Positions 16,632-54,074 of a DNA stretch of 64,000 nt are shown piece by piece (positions within the stretch are counted from its first letter, which is position 1; each line of letters starts with the position of its first letter). The stretch is taken from contig JACQQD010000008.1 of the NCBI GenBank assembly GCA_016207165.1, positions 96,001-160,000 on the forward strand, written 5' to 3'. Source of the stretch: Candidatus Micrarchaeota archaeon (GTDB taxonomy: Archaea > Micrarchaeota > Micrarchaeia > Norongarragalinales > Norongarragalinaceae). The notes under the pieces are model-generated. The model was given only the letters and a program-made list of their open reading frames with translations. It ran no database searches and had not been told where the DNA came from. Both the position numbers and the translations under genes were made by a program.

Positions 16632-17084
16632 TTGGCCTCTCTTTTGACTTCCTTGAAAAAAGTCGTTTCCGCGTCCAAGAACGATCCGGTTCTGCGCCAG
16701 CGCCTCATCGCGCAAGCCATGTTGTTGGGCCAACTCAAGTACATCAAAAACAAGGTCTCGGCTCCGGCCAACGCGTGGCACGACGCGGACGCCTTCGAGA
16801 AATTCATGTTTTCCGTTTTGAAGCCTTCCCGATTTGCCAAAGGCTGGACCCAGCGCATTCTGCACTCGTTTGTTTTGTCCATGGTCTTGGCGCACGGCGA
16901 CTCCAAGAAACTGCGGGCCAAAGCCGGCGCATTCTTGCAGAAGTTTGACAAGCGGTACCACAAGCTCTCCGCGTTTTTCGCGAAATCCCCAGGGTTCTTC
17001 GCCGCGTACCTTTCGGGGTTGAAGTTCCAGAAAGACGTTGTGACGGTTGGGTTGCTGCGGTGCCTCGCGACGCCGCGTCATTGA
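16632..17084 (+). CDS. hypothetical basic protein (150 aa), target gene of the TA cassettes
   Basis: ORF follows the 532-aa gene. Its 3' end recurs twice downstream with mostly synonymous or conservative changes, which supports coding status. Confidence 0.8.
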   Translation: MASLLTSLKKVVSASKNDPVLRQRLIAQAMLLGQLKYIKNKVSAPANAWHDADAFEKFMFSVLKPSRFAKGWTQRILHSFVLSMVLAHGDSKKLRAKAGAFLQKFDKRYHKLSAFFAKSPGFFAAYLSGLKFQKDVVTVGLLRCLATPRH

Positions 17085-17092
17085 CTCTTTGG

Positions 17093-17614
17093 CTATTCGT
17101 CTTTCAGGTGCTTTCGGCAAAGGTATTCCAATACACCGTCTTGCCAGCCCCGCGAATCAATCATTCTTAAAATCGCGTCATTGCCTTGGTTTTTTGACCA
17201 CGTGCCTTGCTTGACCAATTCCACGATCACGGCCGCACTAATCACGATGCGGATGCCCTCGGCTTGGGCCAAGCCGTCCAGTCTGTAGCCGGCTTCCACG
17301 TCATCGCATACCAGCAGTGGAATTTTTTCCCGAATGCACAGTGTGAATGCGCTTGCTTCGCCCACGTCCACAAGTCCCGTCACCGACGGCAAAACTCGGA
17401 CGGGGGCCGCATCCATTTTTCCCGACTTGATTAAGGCGAGGATTTTTTTGGCTGCTTGACCGACTCGGTCGTCAAAACCAGCCAATTCCTTGAGCTCGTC
17501 AACCACGGCCCTTGCAATCTTCCAGGAGACGATGGAAAACGAGGGTGTCAGAGCGCCAGCAAGTTCCAGGGAAACCAGGGCCGAAGTGTCCCCCGCCGCT
17601 GTTTTTAGTGCCAT
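17093..17614 (-). CDS. PIN-domain toxin (DUF3368/VapC-like)
   Basis: DTSAL...GEASA...LLVCDD acidic PIN motifs. Confidence 0.75.
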   Translation of the reverse strand: MALKTAAGDTSALVSLELAGALTPSFSIVSWKIARAVVDELKELAGFDDRVGQAAKKILALIKSGKMDAAPVRVLPSVTGLVDVGEASAFTLCIREKIPLLVCDDVEAGYRLDGLAQAEGIRIVISAAVIVELVKQGTWSKNQGNDAILRMIDSRGWQDGVLEYLCRKHLKDE

Positions 17615-17620
17615 GCCGGT

Positions 17621-17932
17621 TTATCCCAAGCCTTGTTCAAACGACTTTTTGGCCGTGGAAACGAAAAAGGCGACTTTACGAGCTTCCTCGTATCCCAGCA
17701 CTCGCACCAAGTCGTCAAAGAGGATTTGGCCTTCCGCAAATTTTTTCGCAACGATTTTCTTCATTTCGTTCAGCGACTGCTCCCGCGCGTAATATTCTTC
17801 GACGGCTTTCCGTACGATGGCCGAACGAACCTGCCGTTTGCCTTTGGCCAATATCTCGAGTTTCTTCTCCGTTTCAGGCTCCACGCGAACGTGAATGACG
17901 GATTCATGCGCCACGGCAACCCACCTCCACAT
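17621..17932 (-). CDS. RHH/CopG-type antitoxin
   Basis: VIHVRVEPETEKKLEILAK...RSAIVRKAVEEY. Lies upstream of the PIN gene. Exact start uncertain. Confidence 0.75.
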   Translation of the reverse strand: MWRWVAVAHESVIHVRVEPETEKKLEILAKGKRQVRSAIVRKAVEEYYAREQSLNEMKKIVAKKFAEGQILFDDLVRVLGYEEARKVAFFVSTAKKSFEQGLG

Positions 17933-17935
17933 CCA

Positions 17936-17956
17936 ATGTAATACTTTGTATCACAT
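17936..17956. promoter_or_regulatory. palindromic operator of TA operon
   Basis: ATGTAATAC-TTT-GTATCACAT (8 of 9 paired), directly upstream of the antitoxin. Confidence 0.55.
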
Positions 17957-18017
17957 ATTAATGTTTCGGCGAATTGTCCATCCGAAAAAGGGCTGACAAG
18001 CCACGGCTGGCTTGCCT

Positions 18018-18121
18018 CGTTTTTCGCCAAGTCCCCGGAGTTTTTCGCCGCGTACTTGACGGGGTTGAAGTTCAAGAAAGACGCCGTCACGGCCGGGTTG
18101 CTGCGGTGCGTGGCCCGTTGA
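18018..18121 (+). repeat. second copy of the 3' end of gene 16632..17084
   Basis: Translates FFAKSPEFFAAYLTGLKFKKDAVTAGLLRCVAR*, versus FFAKSPGFFAAYLSGLKFQKDVVTVGLLRCLATPRH* in the gene. Confidence 0.92.
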
Positions 18122-18251
18122 TTTCCGTCGGCGTCAAGTACCTGTTGGCAATTGCTTTTCGGTTGCTTTGCAGAGGCTTGGAAAACGGCTTAGTCTTTTC
18201 TTCGATCTGTTTTTGCCGTGGTTGCACTGCCAACGCGGTTTGTTTCTTTCC

Positions 18252-18554
18252 CTACTTTCCTTTGAGTAGCCGGGCGAGCGTTTTTTCCTCCTCGTCGTCC
18301 TCTCCGTAAAGCGCTTCGTCAACGCCCGTGTTTCTGAGGGCTTCCAGGACTTGGCGCGTGGAGACGTTGAGGCTCTCCGCAATTTTTCGAATCGAGTATC
18401 CTTTTTTCCGGAGGTCAGCCACGGTTTCATCCAGGAGCGCCTTGAGGAGGTATTGGCGGGCCACATCCACGCGTTTGAGGTAGTTTTGCTTGGCTTTGGC
18501 GTCCAGCACGTCCACGGCTTCCTTGGGCAAGCCCAAGTGAATGTATTTTGTCAT
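18252..18554 (-). CDS. RHH+HTH antitoxin-like protein (~100 aa)
   Basis: Likely start MTKYIHLGLPKE with an ATGA overlap on the PIN stop. YSIRKIAESLNVSTRQV HTH. Confidence 0.75.
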   Translation of the reverse strand: MTKYIHLGLPKEAVDVLDAKAKQNYLKRVDVARQYLLKALLDETVADLRKKGYSIRKIAESLNVSTRQVLEALRNTGVDEALYGEDDEEEKTLARLLKGK

Positions 18555-19027
18555 GATTTGATTCCCTCCAAGTTCTTCAACGCGGTTTCGACTTTTTTTG
18601 TCCTCGGGTACGTGACGGAAAGTTTTTCCAGCCACGCAACCGCCGTCCGTCGTTCCACCACATCTTTTTTCGCCAGAAATTCGATGAATGCCGGCGTGGA
18701 AAGAACGGCGATGTGCCGATTTCTTGCCGCCGCCATCAAAAGCCCGTCGTCGGTGACCAGAACGCATTCCCGTTTGCGTTGCGTGCACGTTTCCAGGAGG
18801 CTTGCATCGACGGGCGAGAGGTTGCGAAACGCGGAATCCGTCTTGGCGGCTTTGCTTTCAAGGATGGCCACGCATTCCGCCATCCTGACGCTTTTGATTT
18901 CGTCTTTCAGGTTGTGTCGCGCCTCGTCCAATACCGCCTGGATGCTGGCGGGGCGGACGATTCCCAGTGCCTGGACGTCAATTTCGGCCATGAACGTGAG
19001 GAACGTTGCATCCGCAACGTACAACAT
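18551..19027 (-). CDS. PIN-domain toxin
   Basis: YVADATFL...LSPVDASLL...LVTDDGLL. Confidence 0.8.
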   Translation of the reverse strand: MLYVADATFLTFMAEIDVQALGIVRPASIQAVLDEARHNLKDEIKSVRMAECVAILESKAAKTDSAFRNLSPVDASLLETCTQRKRECVLVTDDGLLMAAARNRHIAVLSTPAFIEFLAKKDVVERRTAVAWLEKLSVTYPRTKKVETALKNLEGIKS

Positions 19028-19035
19028 GGCATTTT

Positions 19036-19050
19036 ATTACAATTTGTAAT
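19036..19050. promoter_or_regulatory. perfect palindrome, putative TA operator
   Basis: ATTACAA-T-TTGTAAT, 8 bp upstream of the PIN start. Confidence 0.55.
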
Positions 19051-19097
19051 TCTTAACCTTTTTGGTTTCCGGTCCTATTACTCCGTTGCGGATTCTT

Positions 19098-19205
19098 TTG
19101 TTCGCCAAGTCCCCGGAGTTCTTCGCCGCGTACCTTTCGGGATTGAAGTTCCAGAAGGACACCGTCACAACCGGGCTTCTGCGTTGCTTGGCTGTGGCCC
19201 GATAG
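19098..19205 (+). repeat. third copy of the 3' end of gene 16632..17084
   Basis: Translates LFAKSPEFFAAYLSGLKFQKDTVTTGLLRCLAVAR*. Confidence 0.92.
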
Positions 19206-23577: not shown

Positions 23578-26500
23578 ATGCGTTTTTTTGTCTTCATTGT
23601 TTTCCTGGTGTTGGCGGGTTTGGCTTCATCCGCCGCCTTTGACTTGGCCAACCAACCCAAAGTCAGCGTATACATCGGCTCGGATGCGTCCGTTCCCCAT
23701 GCTTCCGGCGGGGCTTCGTACGCGTTTCGTTTGGCCGGCCCCGCCGTGGTCGGACCCAAGGGGATTGAGGCCAAAATCCAGGCCACGCGTTCCGGCCAAG
23801 CCGAGTGTCCCGGTACAATCAAGGTCAACACGCAGGAGCAATACGCGTGCAACACGGTGTGCATTCGGTTGATTGGCTACCGGACGCAAGCCGCCATTGA
23901 TGCGGACAGCGCTTCCGGTCAACAACCTCTTTCCCAAGAGGACGCCATCGGCGAGCACGCTTTCATGCAAATAGGTTTGAAGTCATCGGATGGCTCGTGT
24001 AATGTCGCGCCGACGGCCGCGGATGTCCAGGCCCTCGCGCAATCGTCGTCGAAAATGACTCCTGAAGAGCAGGCCCGCGCAAGCCAATCCATTTCCGGCG
24101 GCTATCACCGCTTCCTGAAAGACGTTTCAATCGATGTGGCGTTGCTGGCTGGCATCCGCTTCAAGCGGGCGACGCCGCAATACTTGGAGCACCCCCGTGA
24201 ATTGACGGACTTGATGGCCAGCTTACACAAAGTGGAATACCTCGTCTTTCATGCCCCGACGTTTTTGGGCGTCCGCGATACCGTGGAACAATCCCAACTC
24301 GCGATTCGCGCGAATTCCGTGGAGTTGGCGTCAAGCGCCATTGCCTCCTGCGGCGCTCATCCCGCCTTTTTGGAGGAGTTTTCCGTGAATGGTTATGGGC
24401 CCAGTTCACTGTTTTCCGTTGGCCCCTCCGATGAATGGATTCGCTCGTCGTACAAGACGGCGGCTTCCTTGGATGAAGCCAAACAATTTCTTTCCTGCAT
24501 CGGGCAAATCAAGGGCGAAAAGGGGTACTTCTTTTTCGACCGGAAAATTGACCCCAAGACCATCACGCGCGCCTTGGAGGATCCAGGGTACACGTTTTTG
24601 ACGGAGTACGACAAGTCCCGCCGGCAGGAAGGCAACCTGGATGTGACGCAAGCGGACCGCGTGGTTTTCGCCTACGAATTTGGCAAGTACCTGTATACGC
24701 AGAAAGAGGACGCCGACGCCATCAACGTGCTTTCCGCCGCGATTCTGGAAGCCGAGCGGTTGCGCATTCCCAACGTGGTTCACCCTCAAAGCGGTTTGGG
24801 ACTCCAGAAAGACGCGTTTGACACCATCAACGCCGTTTTGGCGCGGCAGGGCCGGGAACCCATGGCGACGCTGGGCGGTTGCCTCAACGGCTTCTTGAAT
24901 CCGCTTATCATCCTAAAACCTCTTCAGTTGCTCAAGATAGGTGCCAAGACCGGCGCCGTCATGTCTGCGGGCGGCCGCGTCATCCACTTGGGCTTTGCTT
25001 TACAAGGCGGTCAGCAACTCATTGGCGCGGCCCAAACCGCGCAGGAGTCGGCTTTGGACTCCACCATTTCGGGTGTGTGCGGGACGGTCATGTTTTTTGG
25101 CGGCCTGAAAGCGGGTCTGACGCGAGCCCCCGCGGCGTCTACGGAAATGGTTCGAACGCCTGAGACAGGCAAATGGGTGTCGCGTCCGGTCATTGGAGGC
25201 TCCAAGGCGGCGTCGGCGCGTGCCTTGGTCTTGAACAAGGAATTGGCGGATACCCCGGTTGAGTTGGTTGTACAACGCTTCACCAAGTTTTCAAGCCAGC
25301 TTAAACCCGGTGAATCCGCTGGAGAGTTTTTTGTGCGGTTGACGGTGAAAGGCAAAGAATTGACTATTCGCGTCACGCCCGAAAACCATCGAGCCGTTTT
25401 GGCGGACGTGTTGCACATAAAGGCGACGCTGGCCATGGAAAAAGCAGACGCCGCCCAGTTTTCTCCCAGTTCCATCAAGGAGTTCCAGCAGGCGCTCTCG
25501 GAATTGTCGAAAGTGGATTCGGAGAAGGCATCATTCTACAACGAGTTCAATTTCCAGTTGAATGAACTGCTGAACGCCAAATCGAAGGAGGCCAAGCAGT
25601 CCATCCAGGAAAAACTCATCGGTTTGGTCTTCCAGCTATCCAAGCCTGAAAATAATCCCGCCAAGCAGCGCATCACGTTCTTGCAAGCGTTGCCTTCCGG
25701 CAAAGCCCAGACTCTGGATGGCTTGACCCCTGCCCAACCCCCTGGAACCGCTCAGCCCAGCGATCGCCGGACCCTCACGGAGCGCTTGCAAGCCGCGACG
25801 GAACTCTTCAAGAAGGCGAAAGAAAAGTTCGGCCGCAGCCTTTCGCGCGTGAAACAGTTCTTTTCGTTCAAGGACGGCCGGAGGATTGAAGTTCCGGAAG
25901 AGGCGTCCAGCCAAATCGCGGACGCCCACGTGGCGGCGTCGGCGACCGGCGAAGCCCAACAAGTCGTTGTTGAGGTTTTGGTGAACGGAAAGAAGCAGAA
26001 CATGCCGGTGTTTGTTCGCCCTGGCGGAAAATTTTTGTCGATTGAGGAAATCAAGCAAGTGGCCAAAGACGGGAAAACCACGATTGCGGGAGTAGTTCGA
26101 CTCGGGGAATTGGTCGTTTTTGATACCCGCCCCCAGAACCTGCGCTTTTTGCAAACTATTCGCCTCAATGACCTGCTTTCCGACTCCAGGCCCCTGCCTG
26201 CTCTTCGTGAATCGGTTACGGCGTTGGCGGATGCCGAAACCCTGTCAACTGATCCTTCAAGCGCCGGCAAGTCAACTCGTCCAGGTGACGCCGTCCAATT
26301 GCCTGAAACCCGCTGGAAGGATGCGTTGACGCGTCTGGGGTTAAGGCGAAATGGAAAATATGATGCCTACTACTTGGTTGAAGGTGCGGCGTTGCGGAAT
26401 GGGGTTCCCCTCCGTTTCGAAGTGACTGGATCCGACAACCACGTCGGTTTTCTGGTTTTGAAAATCATCCGGAACAAAATTCCGGAAAGCATTCGCGACG

Positions 26501-29160
26501 CGACCATTGAAACGCTCAAGAAGGAGGGTTTCACGGAGCACTCCGACGGCACCGTGTTCTCGAAGGAAGTCGACGTCCGGGGCCAGCAGGTGCTCTTGGT
26601 TCCAAAGCCGGGAGCCACAGGCTTGGCCACCCCGATCTTGGATACCGTGGCACCGGAGTTCCAGGCCTTGATTAAAGAACTTTTGCCAAACGAAGGCCGC
26701 GCCCAACGCGTTGCAACCGTGGAGGAAGCCGAAGCCCTGCTTGGGGAAAAAGGTTTGCTGGCGGATCCAACCGCCAAGACCCAGGAAGGCGGCAACCCAT
26801 TTGACCCCGGCAAACTTATTGAAGATCAAGCCGCCAAGGCCGAGCCCAATGCTCGTGAAGTGGCCGAGGAACAACGCCGGCTTGCGGAAGAGCAATCCAA
26901 AGTCGAACCGGTGCGCGCTCCAGTGCAAACCCAGGATGGGGTGTGGGAGGTTTCGGAAGGCCGTGGGTTGACTGTCGGTCGACTGACCGCCAACCGAGTC
27001 GTTCTTCCATCCGAGTCCATTGCCCGCCGGCAAGGAACCTTTTCCGCGGATTCAAAGGACGGCGTCTTTTACGTCAACACTGGTTCAACGAGCGGATACA
27101 GGGTTATTCGGGGCCGCAACGAGCAGGAGTATCCGGGGAGCCACACGGAACCCGTTTCGCTTAAGGCGGGGGACTCCGTTGTATTCGCGGACGGTTCCCG
27201 CGTCGTCGTGGACTCTTATTCGCCGAAATCCGGTTCCGGGCCTGCGGTGGCCCGCTTCCGCGTTGAACCCGCGGAAACGTCTACGTCGCCCACCCTGGAA
27301 ACTCTTCCGAGGACGAAAGGTGGTTCGTATTCGATTACGGGTTGCGCCGTTTGCCTGACGCAAAATCCGTTGGCCAGGGATTTCCTGGTTGACGAGGGCC
27401 AGAAGGCTTCGGTCGGACGCCAGGAAGGCAACACGATCATGTTTGAAAATGCGCATGTTAGCCGCGAGCAAGGAAGGTTCGACGTGGGCGCGCTGGGCGT
27501 TACTTACACGAACTTGGGCAGGTCGAACTTCTTTGCCGCTGTAATCGGGGGCCGCCGCCATGATTTTCCTCCGACGCACGGCGAGCCCATTTTGCTTGGC
27601 CCGTTTGATTCCATTCTTTACTTGAACGGCGAAAAAATCGTCGGCAGCATTACCGTTCAAGAGTTCGCGAAAGCCGCGTCGACGGGCAGTTCCCGGCTTT
27701 TGTTGCGCGTGGAGCGCGCTGGCTTCACTTCAACTCCGGAAACAGAGGGGGGGCCCGCAGTGACTCCGGAAAAAGCCGAGGCCAACCGCGAGGCGTTTGA
27801 AAAGCCACCGGCGCGTGCGTCCGGCGCCAAGCCCAAACTTGAAGTGAAAAAAGCCGGAGTGGCCGAACAGGCCAAAGTGGGGGAAACGGTATCCCAAGAT
27901 TCTCTTTTGAGCATAGAACAAGGTGACCGGTCGGTGGATGTCGTCGCAGATGGCGTAGGCGGCGCGCTTGGAGGCAGAGTCGCGTCGCAAGCCTTTGTAA
28001 ATGGGATTAATACCCGCTTTCCAGAAATGACGGATCAACTTTCGTTGGAAGAAGCCTTTAATGGAGCTGCAGGAGACACCGTCAGCGCGTTACGCCCTGT
28101 TTTAGAAGCAAACAAGTTTGACCGTGAGACTGGCGAGCCGTTGAATCCGCAGGGCGGCACCACGGCGTTGGTTCTTCTGATCAACGGACGTAAAGCGCAC
28201 CTCGCGGGCATCGGGGATGGTGCGTTGTTTATGATTCGCGGCGGTAATATTGAACTGTTATCGGAAATACACAACGACGCGTACGGCGCCCGCGGTCAGG
28301 TTGCGGGTTTGAGACCTGAGGACGCTTTCGTTGACAGAACCGAAGCCGGCGTAAATACGATGCGTAACTCCATTACCCGATCGATTGACGCCGGGATATA
28401 CGACGGGGAGTTCGAATCCTCTCAAGGCATCCCTCGGGGTCAGCATTTCTCTCGTGAATTCTCCGTACAAGACGGCGACCGGTTTATTCTCGTTTCAGAT
28501 GGCGTGGCGGATGTGGTCACGCCGACCGAGATTCGCGAGATTGGCAGACGGGGTACGCCGGAACAAGCCGCCCAAGCAATCTTGGCCTTGGCCCGACAGC
28601 GCATCTCCGGCCGGCATGAAGGCAACTTTGAAGGTCGCAAAATTCCCATCGACGGCAAGAACGACGACATTTCCGTCATCGTGCGGGATGTCGGCGAGCG
28701 GCCGGCTTCTGAGGAATCCTCTTCGGAGCCTTCGCGGTCCGAACCTGCGGTGGCGCGTTCGGCTCCTCCGGCAAGCATGGATTTGGAGCCGTTTACCCGG
28801 CTGATGCCTGCTGGGCCGACTTATTCCATTCGCATTGGCCGCGACGCCGTAAATGATGTGGTGTTGCCCAATGACTTCGTCAGCCGCTATCAGGGGGTGT
28901 TGCATTCGGATTCCTCCGGTCGGTTGTTTTACGAAAACGAAGGCGGATCCAATTCGTTTTGGCTTGGTCGTGGAGGCAGTTTGACGGAGTTGTCGGGTCG
29001 CCGAACCATTGAACTGCGTGTTTTAGACTCGATTTTCTTTGCCGATGGAAGCCGAGTGTACTTCCGTCACCTTAACCCCGCTTACCCCGGTTCGCTGCCA
29101 AGCGCGGTTTTCGACTTTTTCCCGAAATCCGTGGATGCCCCCGAATTTCAACCGACGTGA
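23578..29160 (+). CDS. signal-peptide protein with three FHA-like domains and a PP2C-family phosphatase (1860 aa)
   Basis: MRFFVFIVFLVLAGLASSA; three [VI]GR...[SA]RxQG...N repeats; PP2C motifs QD, VADGVGG, GTTA, GIGDG, LVSDGVAD, DDIS. Confidence 0.85.
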   Translation: MRFFVFIVFLVLAGLASSAAFDLANQPKVSVYIGSDASVPHASGGASYAFRLAGPAVVGPKGIEAKIQATRSGQAECPGTIKVNTQEQYACNTVCIRLIGYRTQAAIDADSASGQQPLSQEDAIGEHAFMQIGLKSSDGSCNVAPTAADVQALAQSSSKMTPEEQARASQSISGGYHRFLKDVSIDVALLAGIRFKRATPQYLEHPRELTDLMASLHKVEYLVFHAPTFLGVRDTVEQSQLAIRANSVELASSAIASCGAHPAFLEEFSVNGYGPSSLFSVGPSDEWIRSSYKTAASLDEAKQFLSCIGQIKGEKGYFFFDRKIDPKTITRALEDPGYTFLTEYDKSRRQEGNLDVTQADRVVFAYEFGKYLYTQKEDADAINVLSAAILEAERLRIPNVVHPQSGLGLQKDAFDTINAVLARQGREPMATLGGCLNGFLNPLIILKPLQLLKIGAKTGAVMSAGGRVIHLGFALQGGQQLIGAAQTAQESALDSTISGVCGTVMFFGGLKAGLTRAPAASTEMVRTPETGKWVSRPVIGGSKAASARALVLNKELADTPVELVVQRFTKFSSQLKPGESAGEFFVRLTVKGKELTIRVTPENHRAVLADVLHIKATLAMEKADAAQFSPSSIKEFQQALSELSKVDSEKASFYNEFNFQLNELLNAKSKEAKQSIQEKLIGLVFQLSKPENNPAKQRITFLQALPSGKAQTLDGLTPAQPPGTAQPSDRRTLTERLQAATELFKKAKEKFGRSLSRVKQFFSFKDGRRIEVPEEASSQIADAHVAASATGEAQQVVVEVLVNGKKQNMPVFVRPGGKFLSIEEIKQVAKDGKTTIAGVVRLGELVVFDTRPQNLRFLQTIRLNDLLSDSRPLPALRESVTALADAETLSTDPSSAGKSTRPGDAVQLPETRWKDALTRLGLRRNGKYDAYYLVEGAALRNGVPLRFEVTGSDNHVGFLVLKIIRNKIPESIRDATIETLKKEGFTEHSDGTVFSKEVDVRGQQVLLVPKPGATGLATPILDTVAPEFQALIKELLPNEGRAQRVATVEEAEALLGEKGLLADPTAKTQEGGNPFDPGKLIEDQAAKAEPNAREVAEEQRRLAEEQSKVEPVRAPVQTQDGVWEVSEGRGLTVGRLTANRVVLPSESIARRQGTFSADSKDGVFYVNTGSTSGYRVIRGRNEQEYPGSHTEPVSLKAGDSVVFADGSRVVVDSYSPKSGSGPAVARFRVEPAETSTSPTLETLPRTKGGSYSITGCAVCLTQNPLARDFLVDEGQKASVGRQEGNTIMFENAHVSREQGRFDVGALGVTYTNLGRSNFFAAVIGGRRHDFPPTHGEPILLGPFDSILYLNGEKIVGSITVQEFAKAASTGSSRLLLRVERAGFTSTPETEGGPAVTPEKAEANREAFEKPPARASGAKPKLEVKKAGVAEQAKVGETVSQDSLLSIEQGDRSVDVVADGVGGALGGRVASQAFVNGINTRFPEMTDQLSLEEAFNGAAGDTVSALRPVLEANKFDRETGEPLNPQGGTTALVLLINGRKAHLAGIGDGALFMIRGGNIELLSEIHNDAYGARGQVAGLRPEDAFVDRTEAGVNTMRNSITRSIDAGIYDGEFESSQGIPRGQHFSREFSVQDGDRFILVSDGVADVVTPTEIREIGRRGTPEQAAQAILALARQRISGRHEGNFEGRKIPIDGKNDDISVIVRDVGERPASEESSSEPSRSEPAVARSAPPASMDLEPFTRLMPAGPTYSIRIGRDAVNDVVLPNDFVSRYQGVLHSDSSGRLFYENEGGSNSFWLGRGGSLTELSGRRTIELRVLDSIFFADGSRVYFRHLNPAYPGSLPSAVFDFFPKSVDAPEFQPT

Positions 29161-30705: not shown

Positions 30706-31818
30706 TCAGGGTAAGTAGATTTTTTCGTAGGCTTTCGTGGTGTTATCCCAGTTGAATTGCTTGAGGACTTTCTTTCGGCCGTTTCGACCGAATTTCTTGG
30801 AGGTTTTCGGGTCGGCCAAAAGTTCGTTGGTTTTTTGGGCCAGGAGCTTCGGGTTTTTCGGTGGAACCAAGAAGCCGTTTTGGTTTTGGTCCACGACTTC
30901 GGGAATGCCGCCGGTTGTGGTTGAAACTACGGGTTTTCCGGAGGCCATGGCTTCAAGCAAAACCATGCCGAAGGGCTCCCACAGTGAGGGAAGGACGAAG
31001 ACGTCGCAGGCGGCGTAGTATTGGGCGATCACGTCTTCGGACAGCTCGTCGGTGATGAAGGTGACGGGCGCCTTCTTTTTTTTCGCGTATTTTTTCAGGG
31101 TTTTTTCAAGGGGCCCGCGTCCAATGATGACGGTGTCGGCGTTGATTTCCAGGGAGGCGTCGATGAGGTATTTGAGGCCTTTTTGTTTGACGAGGCGTGC
31201 GACGCACAAGACGAATGGTTTTTCGTGGGGTGCGTTTGGGGTTTGTTTTCTCGGTTTGAAGACGTGGGCGTCAACTCCGTTGTAGGCCACGGCCTTTTTT
31301 CCGTGGAATTTTTTGGGGAGGGTGATGTCCAGCGTGTTTTGGCTGACTCCGAGGATTCCGGTGCACGCGTTCATTACAGTTGAACCTATGGTGTCGTCAA
31401 AGGCTTGGCCCCAAAAGTCGGTGGCCACGTCAATGCCTGTGGTTCGGGCGTTGTGCAGGGTCAAGTACAAGGGAACGCCGTATTTTTTGGAGGCGGCCAC
31501 TAGGTCCAGTCCATAAAAGAATCGGTTGTGGGCGTGGACGAGGTCCATGTGCGGCAAAAGTTTGGCGAGGTCTTTGGCGTGGTCCGGCATGATGGGGATG
31601 GGTGGGACGAGGGGTTGGGGTAAGTCTTCCAGGACCCAGGCGTTGGAGCGTACTAAGTGCATGCCGTGAAGGTCCTCTTTTTTTGGGGTGTTGGGCAGCT
31701 TTGCGGTCAGGACCGTGACGTCGTGGTTCTTGGAGAGCCGTTTGCCGACTTCCAGGACGTGTTTTTCGGTGCCGCCTTGGTAGGGGGAAAAAAAGGGGTT
31801 GAGCATGAGGATGCGCAT
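30706..31818 (-). CDS. GT4 family glycosyltransferase
   Basis: Start MRILMLNPFF...GGTEKH; EPFGMVLLEAMASGKPVV. Confidence 0.9.
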   Translation of the reverse strand: MRILMLNPFFSPYQGGTEKHVLEVGKRLSKNHDVTVLTAKLPNTPKKEDLHGMHLVRSNAWVLEDLPQPLVPPIPIMPDHAKDLAKLLPHMDLVHAHNRFFYGLDLVAASKKYGVPLYLTLHNARTTGIDVATDFWGQAFDDTIGSTVMNACTGILGVSQNTLDITLPKKFHGKKAVAYNGVDAHVFKPRKQTPNAPHEKPFVLCVARLVKQKGLKYLIDASLEINADTVIIGRGPLEKTLKKYAKKKKAPVTFITDELSEDVIAQYYAACDVFVLPSLWEPFGMVLLEAMASGKPVVSTTTGGIPEVVDQNQNGFLVPPKNPKLLAQKTNELLADPKTSKKFGRNGRKKVLKQFNWDNTTKAYEKIYLP

Positions 31819-31883
31819 GCTAATGGTGACGGTGGAATTGGATTTAAAGCGTGACGGCTGACACGGGAAGAATTGTTTGTTGG

Positions 31884-32000
31884 TTATGTTTTCGTTCGTC
31901 GGTTCCATTCGCGTCGTATTCGCTTGACGTATTTACTTCCGCTTCCTTTTTCATTTTTCCAAAGTCCCGCGGCGTTGTCCATGACTTTTTTTCTGAGTTT
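31884..32000 (-). pseudogene. possible C-terminal fragment of an archaeal antitoxin
   Basis: Reads KLRKKVMDNAAGLWKNEKGSGSKYVKRIRREWNRRTKT*, resembling VapB-type tails. Abuts structured element A. Confidence 0.4.
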
Positions 32001-32213
32001 TATAGCAAGACCGGCAAATGAAACAAACCGCTTGGCGGTTTGTTGCATGCTGCAAGCCGTTATCGGCTTGCATCATTTCACGACGAATAGGCCGGTCTTG
32101 CTAGACAGCACAGCACAAATTGCTATGGCAATTTGTGTGGCCTTGCAAATCTTAGCGATTTGCAAGAAACCAAGACTATTGGCTTGGGAAACTTTCTTGG
32201 TTTGCTGTATTGA
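32001..32213. repeat. structured repeat copy A (inverted hairpin doublet plus two 57-nt double-hairpin inserts)
   Basis: 13-bp stem 32003-32015/32091-32103; second stem closing at 32195-32208; four internal hairpins; homologous to 42339-42435 and 54022-54074. Confidence 0.9.
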
Positions 32214-32267
32214 TGCCATCGATGTCATTTCGCGTCAAGTTCTGATGTTTTCTTCGATTTATTCGTT

Positions 32268-33521
32268 TCACACGGTGACGGTTTTTCCTTCGGTTGGAGC
32301 CGATGCGTCGAAGCCTTCGGCTTTGAGGTCCGCGACGAGGGCTTTGGCGGCGGATTCGTCGCCGTGCACGCAGAAGACGTGTTTGGGGTTGACGGCTTTC
32401 GCGTAGGCCACCAGCTCGGGGCCGGAGGCGTGCGCCGAGAACTCGAATTGGCTTACCGGGAGGTTGACTTTGTCGGAGTAGCCGTTGAACCGCACTTTTT
32501 GGCCGTTTAGAAGCGCGTAGCCGTTGGATCCAGGGGCTTGGTAGCCGGTTAACAAAACGACGCCGTTTTGGCGGTGGTTCAGAGCCTTCAAATAGGATAA
32601 TGCGGGTCCGCCGTCAAGCATTCCGGCGGTGGCGATGATGACTCCGGGTTTTTTGACGGCGGCTTGGCGTTGCGTGTGGGATTCCATGAAGCGCGTGCGT
32701 TTTACGGCGTCGCGCAAGAGGTTTGGGTTCTTGATGTAGGAGGGAAAATCCAGCATGATGTCGGTCACGGTTTTGGCCATGCCGTCCAAGTAGAAATCGG
32801 CTTGAACGCCTCTAGCTTGTAAAATGCAGAGGATTTCCTGCGCTCGGCCGATGGCGAAAGCGGGAACCAAGACGGTTTGGTTGTGGTCGACGGCGTCTTG
32901 GACTTGGTCGCAGAAGCGTTTTTCGAGTTCGTTTCGGTCGGGGTGGTCGGCTCCGCCGTACGTGCTTTCCGTGACCAGCACGTCGACGTCGCTTTTGGGT
33001 GGCTTGGCGCCGGCGTGAAGCCGCGTGGGTTCGGGTTTGAAGTCGCCGGTGTACAAGAGCGTTTTCTTGTTTTGGATGAGGACTTGCGCGGCGCCCAGGA
33101 TGTGGCCGGCGTCGAAGAACTCGAAGCGGGTGTCTTCGTAGAACGCGTATTGGGCGTTGTAGGGAAGCGGAATGGCGTGTTTGAGCAGGGTCTTGACGTC
33201 TTTGCGGTTGTAGGGTAGCGCTTTCTTGTTTAAAATCGCGATTTTTTCGGAGTCTTCCCACAACAAGTTCACCAAGGGCAATGTGGGAAAGGTGGCGAAG
33301 GCGGGGATGGGGTGGTGTTTGTAGAGGGAGGGCGCGGCGCCGGAGTGGTCCAAGTGGGCGTGGGAGAGAATGAATGCGTCGGCTCTGATTTTCGAGAAAT
33401 CCGGCATGCTGTCTTCTTCCCGGATTTTCATGCCCGCGTCCAAGACGATTTTGACGTCGGATTCGACGAGAAACGCGCTTTTGCCGACTTCTTGGCAGGC
33501 GCCGATGAAGGTGAGCTTCAT
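32268..33521 (-). CDS. MBL-fold beta-CASP ribonuclease (aCPSF2-like)
   Basis: GACQEVGKS, SHAHLDHSG, AGHILG, YTGD, ESTYG, FSAH, VHGD. Confidence 0.92.
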   Translation of the reverse strand: MKLTFIGACQEVGKSAFLVESDVKIVLDAGMKIREEDSMPDFSKIRADAFILSHAHLDHSGAAPSLYKHHPIPAFATFPTLPLVNLLWEDSEKIAILNKKALPYNRKDVKTLLKHAIPLPYNAQYAFYEDTRFEFFDAGHILGAAQVLIQNKKTLLYTGDFKPEPTRLHAGAKPPKSDVDVLVTESTYGGADHPDRNELEKRFCDQVQDAVDHNQTVLVPAFAIGRAQEILCILQARGVQADFYLDGMAKTVTDIMLDFPSYIKNPNLLRDAVKRTRFMESHTQRQAAVKKPGVIIATAGMLDGGPALSYLKALNHRQNGVVLLTGYQAPGSNGYALLNGQKVRFNGYSDKVNLPVSQFEFSAHASGPELVAYAKAVNPKHVFCVHGDESAAKALVADLKAEGFDASAPTEGKTVTV

Positions 33522-42338: not shown

Positions 42339-42435
42339 ATTACAGTAAACCACGAATGTTTCCCGACAAAATAGTCGTGGTTTACTGTCTAGCAAACTCC
42401 GCCTATTCGTCGTGAAATTTGCGGGGTTTGCTATA
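42339..42435. repeat. structured repeat copy B (intact inverted hairpin doublet)
   Basis: Perfect 14-bp stem 42342-42355/42375-42388, then 13-bp stem 42390-42402/42421-42433 (one T-G pair). Ends ~20 nt before the HMG-CoA synthase ATG. Confidence 0.9.
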
Positions 42436-54021: not shown

Positions 54022-54074
54022 TATAGCAATCCCCGACTATTTTGTCGGGTCACTTTCTTGGTTTGCTGTATTGA
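54022..54074. repeat. structured repeat copy C (internally deleted)
   Basis: Begins TATAGCAA; 16-bp exact match to copy B (54034-54049 vs reverse complement of 42362-42377); 23-bp exact match to copy A (54052-54074 vs 32191-32213). Confidence 0.85.

Follow-up and report, generated by a model that had tools for sequence, protein, structure and literature searches.

Two 57-nucleotide mini-hairpin modules nested in a REP/BIME-like intergenic repeat of a Candidatus Micrarchaeota archaeon

The window analysed here is a 64,000-nt stretch of a draft genome of Candidatus Micrarchaeota archaeon (GCA_016207165.1, contig JACQQD010000008.1, positions 96,001 to 160,000). The genome comprises 1.27 Mb in 12 contigs, is 90% complete and encodes a TATA-binding protein as well as an archaeal RNase P RNA. 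A palindromic element, termed copy A, and its immediate surroundings (31996-32214) lie in the spacer between two minus-strand genes (Table 1). As these genes are not adjacent in relatives, copy A is without a counterpart there; in a congener they lie about 4.4 kb apart, and no repeat element was found upstream of the glycosyltransferase gene; relatives of the beta-CASP gene were sought in metagenome contigs and none was confirmed. A 32-codon ORF that precedes the glycosyltransferase gene (31885-31983, minus strand, located by eye) begins 22-25 nt past the TATA-like end of copy A and may be spurious. Elsewhere the window contains an HMG-CoA reductase gene beside an HMG-CoA synthase-like gene, a plus-strand gene (23578-29160) for an 1860-residue protein in which PP2C phosphatase and FHA domains near the C-terminus are the only recognised ones, and three 105-nt direct repeats (16964-19192, about 1.05-kb spacing, 73-82% identity), which are probably tandem paralogous genes.

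Table 1. Features of copy A, its neighbours and further loci discussed in the text (window positions unless a contig is named).
Feature	Position	Strand	Remarks
Glycosyltransferase family 4/group 1 gene	30706..31818	-	copy A lies ~180 nt upstream
Copy A, inverted back-to-back pair of 48-nt hairpin units	32001-32209		
Left 48-nt unit of copy A	32001..32104	-	minus-strand sense; interrupted by insert 1
Insert 1 (module M1), 57 nt	32020..32076	.	two mini-hairpins, linker TGCATGC
Mini-hairpin AACAAACCGC-TTG-GCGGTTTGTT	32022..32044	.	from the perfect-hairpin listing
Mini-hairpin TGCAAGCCG-TTAT-CGGCTTGCA	32051..32072	.	from the perfect-hairpin listing
Right 48-nt unit of copy A	32105..32209	+	plus-strand sense; interrupted by insert 2
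Insert 2 (module M2), 57 nt	32110..32166	.	two mini-hairpins, linker GTGGCC
Mini-hairpin CACAAATTGC-TATG-GCAATTTGTG	32114..32137	.	from the perfect-hairpin listing
Mini-hairpin CTTGCAAATC-TTAGC-GATTTGCAAG	32142..32166	.	from the perfect-hairpin listing
Metallo-beta-lactamase/beta-CASP nuclease gene	32268..33521	-	copy A lies ~60 nt beyond the stop codon
Uninterrupted two-unit copy	42341..42435	.	units 42341-42388 (minus) and 42389-42435 (plus)
Single chimeric unit, probably copy B of the preliminary description	54023..54070	+	arms from different stem types
tRNA-Ser(CGA) gene	L035:1293-1496 = C11:34292-34495	-	118-nt intron at canonical position

The two hairpins of a copy are mutually reverse complementary, which reduces the repeat to a single building block of 48 nt. 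This unit combines a conserved foot (AYAGCAA/TTGCTRTA), a conserved 19-nt loop (consensus CTATTTYGTCGKGWWAYTT) and a variable, always complementary distal stem, with a perfect stem of 13-14 bp; its 5' start reads ATAG, ACAG or CTAG in alignment A1. Double elements carry terminal inverted repeats (TAYAGCAA...TTGCTRTA) at their outer ends. In copy A the outer end of the left unit reads TTGCTATAAAA on the minus strand and resembles a TATA box, and that of the right unit, which corresponds to the covariance-model match C8:128162-128209, reads TTGCTGTA. Every copy is bordered by TA on its two sides, and this dinucleotide could belong to the element itself; neither an unambiguous target-site duplication nor a clean empty site was recovered for the repeat.

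Searches with the loop motif and then with profiles (nhmmer) located the repeat at 32 loci of the genome, with 47 units counted by nhmmer and 49 by a covariance model. Relative to crude gene calls made in this analysis, all 32 loci are intergenic, and divergent, tandem and convergent spacers are all represented. Adjacent units follow an antisense-then-sense order in 17/17 pairs of this genome and in 49/52 pairs over all genomes sampled, the three exceptions falling between neighbouring elements. On a metagenome contig (L078:483-674) four consecutive units make up two abutting double elements, and larger mosaics of the repeat thus exist. Pairing of the unit hairpin is under strong constraint. 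Across 83 distinct units, collected here, in three relatives and on metagenome contigs, 94.2% of the cells are paired compared to 73.2% in shuffles (0/500 as high), 11 of the 14 base pairs vary on both sides (244 cells), and the covariation score is 0.544 versus 0.155, with slid controls pairing at 42.7% or less. A link between the repeat and tRNA genes was considered and rejected, as about 3 of 32 loci lie within roughly 100 nt of such a gene (by eye), against a rough expectation of 2.

The preliminary description had noted two 57-nt insertions in copy A, and alignment A2, which holds copy A and five other copies of the repeat (six in total), bears this out with two gaps of exactly 57 columns at 32020-32076 and 32110-32166. 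Insert 1 is positioned at the 3' edge of the host unit loop (site T^TTGC) and insert 2 in the 5' arm of its host unit, directly after ACAGC. The second block is missing in 5/5 of the other copies; the first is missing in three and occupies identical columns in C7:6002 and C7:33253. Deleting both blocks in silico from copy A restores the consensus unit. Copy B, against which copy A had originally been compared, turned out to be unsuitable: the locus that probably represents it is a single unit whose arms pair at 9/13 positions only, and suitable copies free of inserts are found at 42341-42435 and on other contigs.

The double-hairpin layout that had been described for both inserts agrees with the sequence, each block consisting of two perfect hairpins, and the four mini-hairpins have stems of 9-10 bp and loops of 3-5 nt. 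Each block folds with a z-score between -4.8 and -5.8 on either strand, with 0/200 shuffles equally stable. Copy A as a whole reaches -67.9 kcal/mol compared to -27.2 +/- 3.6 in shuffles (z -11.2), and in its predicted fold the 57-nt blocks would be junction branches of two closed multi-branch domains. The motif might have occurred nowhere else, as the preliminary description allowed; instead it recurs. The search with the proposed hairpin descriptor gave 2 matches in the window against 0.00 expected (0/100 shuffles reach 2) and three places in the whole genome against none for a reversed control pattern. Perfect hairpins are also frequent genome-wide (234 versus 77 in a block-shuffled control). 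The 57-nt blocks are real, homologous in build and part of a modular mini-hairpin family nested in a REP/BIME-like repeat.

Mini-hairpin modules occur as doublets or as arrays of four or six hairpins with conserved linkers, and they are found at the same two unit sites in this genome and three relatives, in both orientations. In this genome they are present at 5/32 loci, plus one locus with a truncated module; as the module-bearing loci of the relatives were partly chosen by their match to copy A, the module frequency among the units of these relatives is no fair estimate. M1 lies at identical columns in three copies of this genome, all three host units belong to one common stem subtype, and it is accompanied by three different loop variants of the partner unit. 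An M1-like module at C12:35250 occupies a second site, in the arm of another unit type, and combines the M1 flanks and linker (GA ... GCATGC ... TCAT) with different, still complementary stems. A relative from another genus has a six-hairpin array at the M1 loop site, whose first two hairpins match those of M1. Arrays of the M2 type with two, four or six hairpins are present in three relatives. At the M2 site, one copy on contig C1 and two congener copies carry four-hairpin arrays of exactly 109 nt each with conserved linkers (GGTC, GGCCAC, GATGCCAC), and M2 equals such an array minus the two inner hairpins (52 nt). One congener array agrees with another array at 83/109 positions as reverse complement and at 56/109 as read, which means that the array is inverted at the same host site. 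Similarly, hairpin 32022-32044 matches C7:33253 at 22/23 positions when flipped versus 19/23 as read, the loops of the two being reverse complements.

Doublets of like build are also found beyond the unit, where a hairpin with a GCAA foot is joined by a GGGCCC-like linker to a hairpin with a CA(C/A)AA foot. The intron of the tRNA-Ser(CGA) gene holds a T-rich hairpin together with such a doublet; the exons align in three relatives, whose introns are much shorter and free of the doublet, and an 81-nt segment of it has matches elsewhere in the genomes of two relatives, at 81-83% identity. Another doublet (C6:93040-93088) lies outside the unit in the loop of a T-rich hairpin (C6:93013-93112), and a congener has a free-standing array of six hairpins with a closing outer stem (L065). 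The preliminary proposal of a smaller hairpin-doublet element inside the larger repeat is favoured by the doublet at the same loop site in two further copies, by the related 2-, 4- and 6-hairpin arrays that three related genomes have at the two module sites, in one case inverted, and by these occurrences outside the repeat.

Several observations were made alongside. A homologue of the intron module in a congener (L149 ~1400-1690, C17:104330-104620) has a near-identical stretch of about 27 nt on both sides. Read by eye, it corresponds to the 5' end of a gene for a HAD-type hydrolase (MILAWDFDGV...), and the gene start is therefore duplicated around the module; the duplication could be a long target duplication. 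The T-rich hairpin (CTTTTCTTT-ygg-AAAGAAAAG) is present in five copies (C6:92186-92206, C6:95458-95479, C8:850-871, C8:6191-6212 and C11:34430-34452), each at most 75 nt from a tRNA gene on either side or inside a tRNA intron. A repeated motif, some 60 nt long and containing a GCGATG...CATCGC hairpin (GGTTGGAAGCGATG...; C1:179690-179770, C6:92270-92335, C8:6330-6375 and C6:117820-117860), adjoins tRNA genes or tRNA fragments, and duplicates of partial tRNA 3' ends lie close to tRNA-Pro (C8:6217-6430) and tRNA-Thr (C6:92052-92232). The motif copies and duplicated ends may be integration scars or split-tRNA leaders. Furthermore, the 23S rRNA gene contains a group I intron (L036:3158-3431, contig C8) and measures 3396 nt against a model of 2987 positions.

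Among relatives, BLAST with one copy detected the repeat in 4/41 genomes, namely the genome itself, two congeners and one member of another genus. With the covariance model, the unit was found in 13/68 genomes of the order, patchily distributed over four families with 1-71 matches each. A first exact pattern matched none of the genome contigs scanned; an exact 21-mer of the repeat is shared by 6 contigs of three Candidatus Micrarchaeota archaeon records and by 11 metagenome contigs. In the spacer between the HMG-CoA reductase and synthase-like genes, the element of this genome lies at the synthase start, a different one is found close to the reductase in one congener, and the spacers of two other relatives are free of elements; repeat positions are not orthologous between genomes. 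Four public runs, all DNA and from one study, contain the copy A region and are labelled groundwater metagenome; no RNA run was found for it. Contigs of these runs compared with 31400-32800 break at the repeat, most pieces derive from other copies, and no filled-versus-empty polymorphism was seen at copy A. One contig joins 32109 to 32167 and skips the 57 nt; it was discarded as evidence for an empty site, since both of its sides lie within the repeat and it is uninformative on the copy A locus. Literature searches on archaeal palindromic repeats, MITEs, REP/RAYT and Micrarchaeota, leaving aside the supplementary MITE lists of PMC11602168, gave no description of the repeat.

The structure of copy A raises the question of whether the repeat acts as DNA or as RNA. 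Unit and modules together could be a multi-copy structured non-coding RNA, with the 57-nt blocks as fixed-length expansion segments that are tolerated or used in the RNA, for example as platforms for an RNA-binding protein. The strong covariation of the units would fit this, as would the two multi-branch domains predicted for copy A, the conservation of loop and single-stranded linkers next to variable stems, the doublet within a transcribed tRNA intron and the six-hairpin array with its closing outer stem. However, a transcribed, strand-specific RNA is expected to tolerate G·U and not A·C, and no G·U bias is seen in the 94 units counted (101 full-length units, of which 7 with fewer than 10/13 positions paired were dropped): 1170/1222 stem positions are Watson-Crick pairs, and the mismatches comprise 11 G·T and 13 A·C. 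The stems are long, perfect and bulge-free, array and loop are found in both orientations at one site, and the units of a pair are mutually reverse complementary, so that no single strand has a constant loop sequence. Copies in every orientation relative to neighbouring genes count further against the expansion modules of a structured RNA that the preliminary description had offered as its second reading, and Rfam gave 0 matches in the whole window at gathering score and chance-level matches only (E 0.5-4) in 31850-32350 at E<=10. We regard an RNA as unlikely; the mismatches, the inverted units and arrays, the flipped loop, the orientations and the Rfam result are more in line with a palindrome at the level of DNA. 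From the sequence alone, integron attC sites, CRISPR, C/D-box sRNAs, terminators and replication-origin boxes were also considered and rejected, as their typical motifs or arrangement were not recognised. It is less likely still that the repeats are mainly promoter or regulatory cassettes under selection, in which the adjacent gene would be driven from a TATA-like end and tuned by the hairpins, whether or not these contain modules. The unit ends read TTGCTATA(A) or TTGCTGTA(A), and 13/26 TATA-type ends point toward a gene start; in 5 of these 13 the TATA lies 23-36 nt ahead of the called start codon, close to where native TATA-like hexamers peak (-33 to -28, with 48/175 occurrences in 2/21 bins). 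The TATA-type end of 42341-42435 is located 23 nt upstream of the HMG-CoA synthase-like start codon, in the place of the TATA-like box that two relatives have of their own. Against this, the other 13/26 TATA-type ends face gene 3' ends, the contrast to the TGTA-type ends (5/16 toward gene starts) is small, the underlying gene calls are crude, the TATA end of copy A is about 180 nt from the glycosyltransferase start, and the modules are left unexplained. The positions of the unit ends suggest occasional promoter donation or replacement, and no more.

A further explanation treats the blocks as DNA and denies them a separate existence: they would have arisen in place by palindrome-driven duplication or template switching, or be remnants of a longer ancestral repeat from which they were lost through hairpin-mediated deletion, and would have spread only by copying of whole composites. 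Fixed module sites are in line with such an origin, as are the sizes of 57 and 109 nt, which differ by a step of two hairpins (52 nt), the end of M2 (TTTGTGCTGT), which mimics the interrupted host arm (TTTGCTGT), loop-deleted units that resemble mini-hairpins (C6:162903, C8:34490), and the fact that no target duplication was seen. In addition, the M1-bearing units are all of the same stem subtype. M1 would be explained equally well if it went back to one ancient event, after which the element was copied as a whole, or if a longer ancestor had been shortened by precise hairpin-mediated deletion. This origin is nevertheless improbable as a general account, since doublets of the same build occur in unrelated hosts (the tRNA intron, the T-rich hairpin loop, or alone), the M1-like module occupies another site in a unit of another type, and M1 is combined with three partner-unit loop variants. 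The best-supported reading, to which we assign a probability of roughly 0.6 on the basis of comparative anatomy, is that the 57-nt blocks are, or formerly were, independently inserting DNA. In their behaviour the inserts would resemble miniature mobile DNA and not a working RNA; for each module case we infer the direction, insertion or deletion, from comparison of the copies.

Several transposase families were screened as candidate mobilisers, and no link to the repeat emerged for Y1, TnpB, IS630 DDE_3, DDE_Tnp_1 or IS110. The Y1/HUH profile PF01797 had no match over the cut-off in 8/9 unit-bearing genomes searched and five matches in the ninth, none of them adjoined by a unit. TnpB elements of two relatives have ends unrelated to the unit, IS630 DDE_3 was detected in 0/4 genomes, and a unit lies near only one of seven DDE_Tnp_1 loci, outside the terminal repeats of the IS. 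Altogether the TnpB, DDE_3, DDE_Tnp_1 and IS110 searches returned no IS bounded by units. Multi-copy IS elements are often lost from draft bins, and with bins that are 71-90% complete the absence of a transposase is therefore weak evidence. According to one survey, IS200/IS605 elements are present in >65% of Micrarchaeota genomes (PMC13343696).

Under the reading of inserting DNA, copy A would belong to a lineage-restricted family of archaeal palindromic intergenic DNA repeats that act like bacterial REP/BIME or REPIN sequences. Its unit, with conserved foot, conserved loop and a distal stem free to vary as long as it pairs, occurs singly or as back-to-back inverted pairs, and the 57-nt blocks represent a second, smaller family of mini-hairpin modules whose doublets can grow to four or six hairpins by steps of about 52 nt. 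These modules lie at TTTGC-type sites in the unit and in dispensable places such as a tRNA intron or the loop of another hairpin. We assume that spread takes place at the DNA level via folded single-strand hairpins, perhaps mediated by a hairpin-recognising enzyme or by template switching during replication, and that loop flips and array inversions might be by-products of this process. TATA-like unit ends might sometimes serve as or replace the promoters of neighbouring genes. A bolder version is conceivable and in our view doubtful: the doublets of about 52-57 nt could be self-standing and the smallest mobile DNA of archaea, spreading as hairpin-driven single strands without a transposase, homing to TTTGC feet, tRNA introns and hairpin loops, and assembling, within a TATA-donating REP-like host, arrays that comprise two, four or six hairpins and may point either way.

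Small-genome DPANN-type archaea are thought to carry little spare DNA, and in such organisms we find a two-tier system of a constrained 48-nt unit and nested modules, which extends to a tRNA intron. If the modules are mobile, the question is what moves hairpins of 50 nt without a visible transposase, and they would provide markers for strain tracking in groundwater communities. If the unit ends act as TATA boxes, the repeats would rewire promoters in reduced genomes.

To our knowledge, REP-like palindromic repeats are known almost entirely from bacteria and organelles. The repeat described here shares with REP, BIME and REPIN sequences the short extragenic palindromes in tens of copies (here 47-49 units at 32 loci), the occurrence of units alone, in inverted pairs (here 49/52) and in mosaic clusters whose linkers are conserved, a short conserved tag at the foot of the hairpin (here AYAG/CTAG), and a recognition that apparently relies on folding and not on the sequence of the stem. 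Some REP families, the CGTC REPs among them, have been described that lack a transposase of their own (PMC3733652). The present repeat differs in its archaeal host, in its longer unit (48 nt), whose conserved loop measures 19 nt and whose perfect stem 13-14 bp, and in the mini-hairpin arrays nested in this unit. Of the GTAG or CGTC tag only YAG is common to both, and no RAYT/Y1 gene is linked to the repeat in these draft genomes (71-90% complete).

MITEs such as the Correia elements of Neisseria, as well as the modular BOX and ERIC repeats, lie between genes, are non-coding and measure about 100 nt, with inverted ends and a TA on each side; the ends of some resemble promoters, and some variants contain internal insertions or a variable number of modules. 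The terminal inverted repeats TAYAGCAA...TTGCTRTA constitute a similar feature of our repeat. According to a census across prokaryotes, 20% of archaeal genomes contain MITEs, and their density is high in some DPANN genomes (PMC11602168). In contrast to MITEs, the two terminal repeats of the present element differ in their stems and have only foot, loop and fold in common, and a partner IS with matching ends was not found.

In size and shape the modules may be compared with the double-hairpin elements of fungal mitochondria described by Paquin et al. in 2000, which reportedly are about as large as the 57-nt doublets and similarly formed. These elements and the mitochondrial GC clusters belong to organelles of eukaryotes and are unrelated in sequence. 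For the GC clusters of yeast mitochondria (GC42), short target duplications (AG, ACT) are reported and population-level turnover was demonstrated (PMC4478555), whereas no target duplication is established for the modules, which are known from sequence comparison. As portrayed in the same article, GC clusters are hairpins of 18-86 nt, sporadic, variable in copy number and without an encoded enzyme (PMC4478555), and the modules are likewise very small hairpin elements of sporadic occurrence and variable copy number with no enzyme of their own. The GC clusters are further described as spreading, merging and shuffling into larger composite hairpin clusters (PMC4478555).
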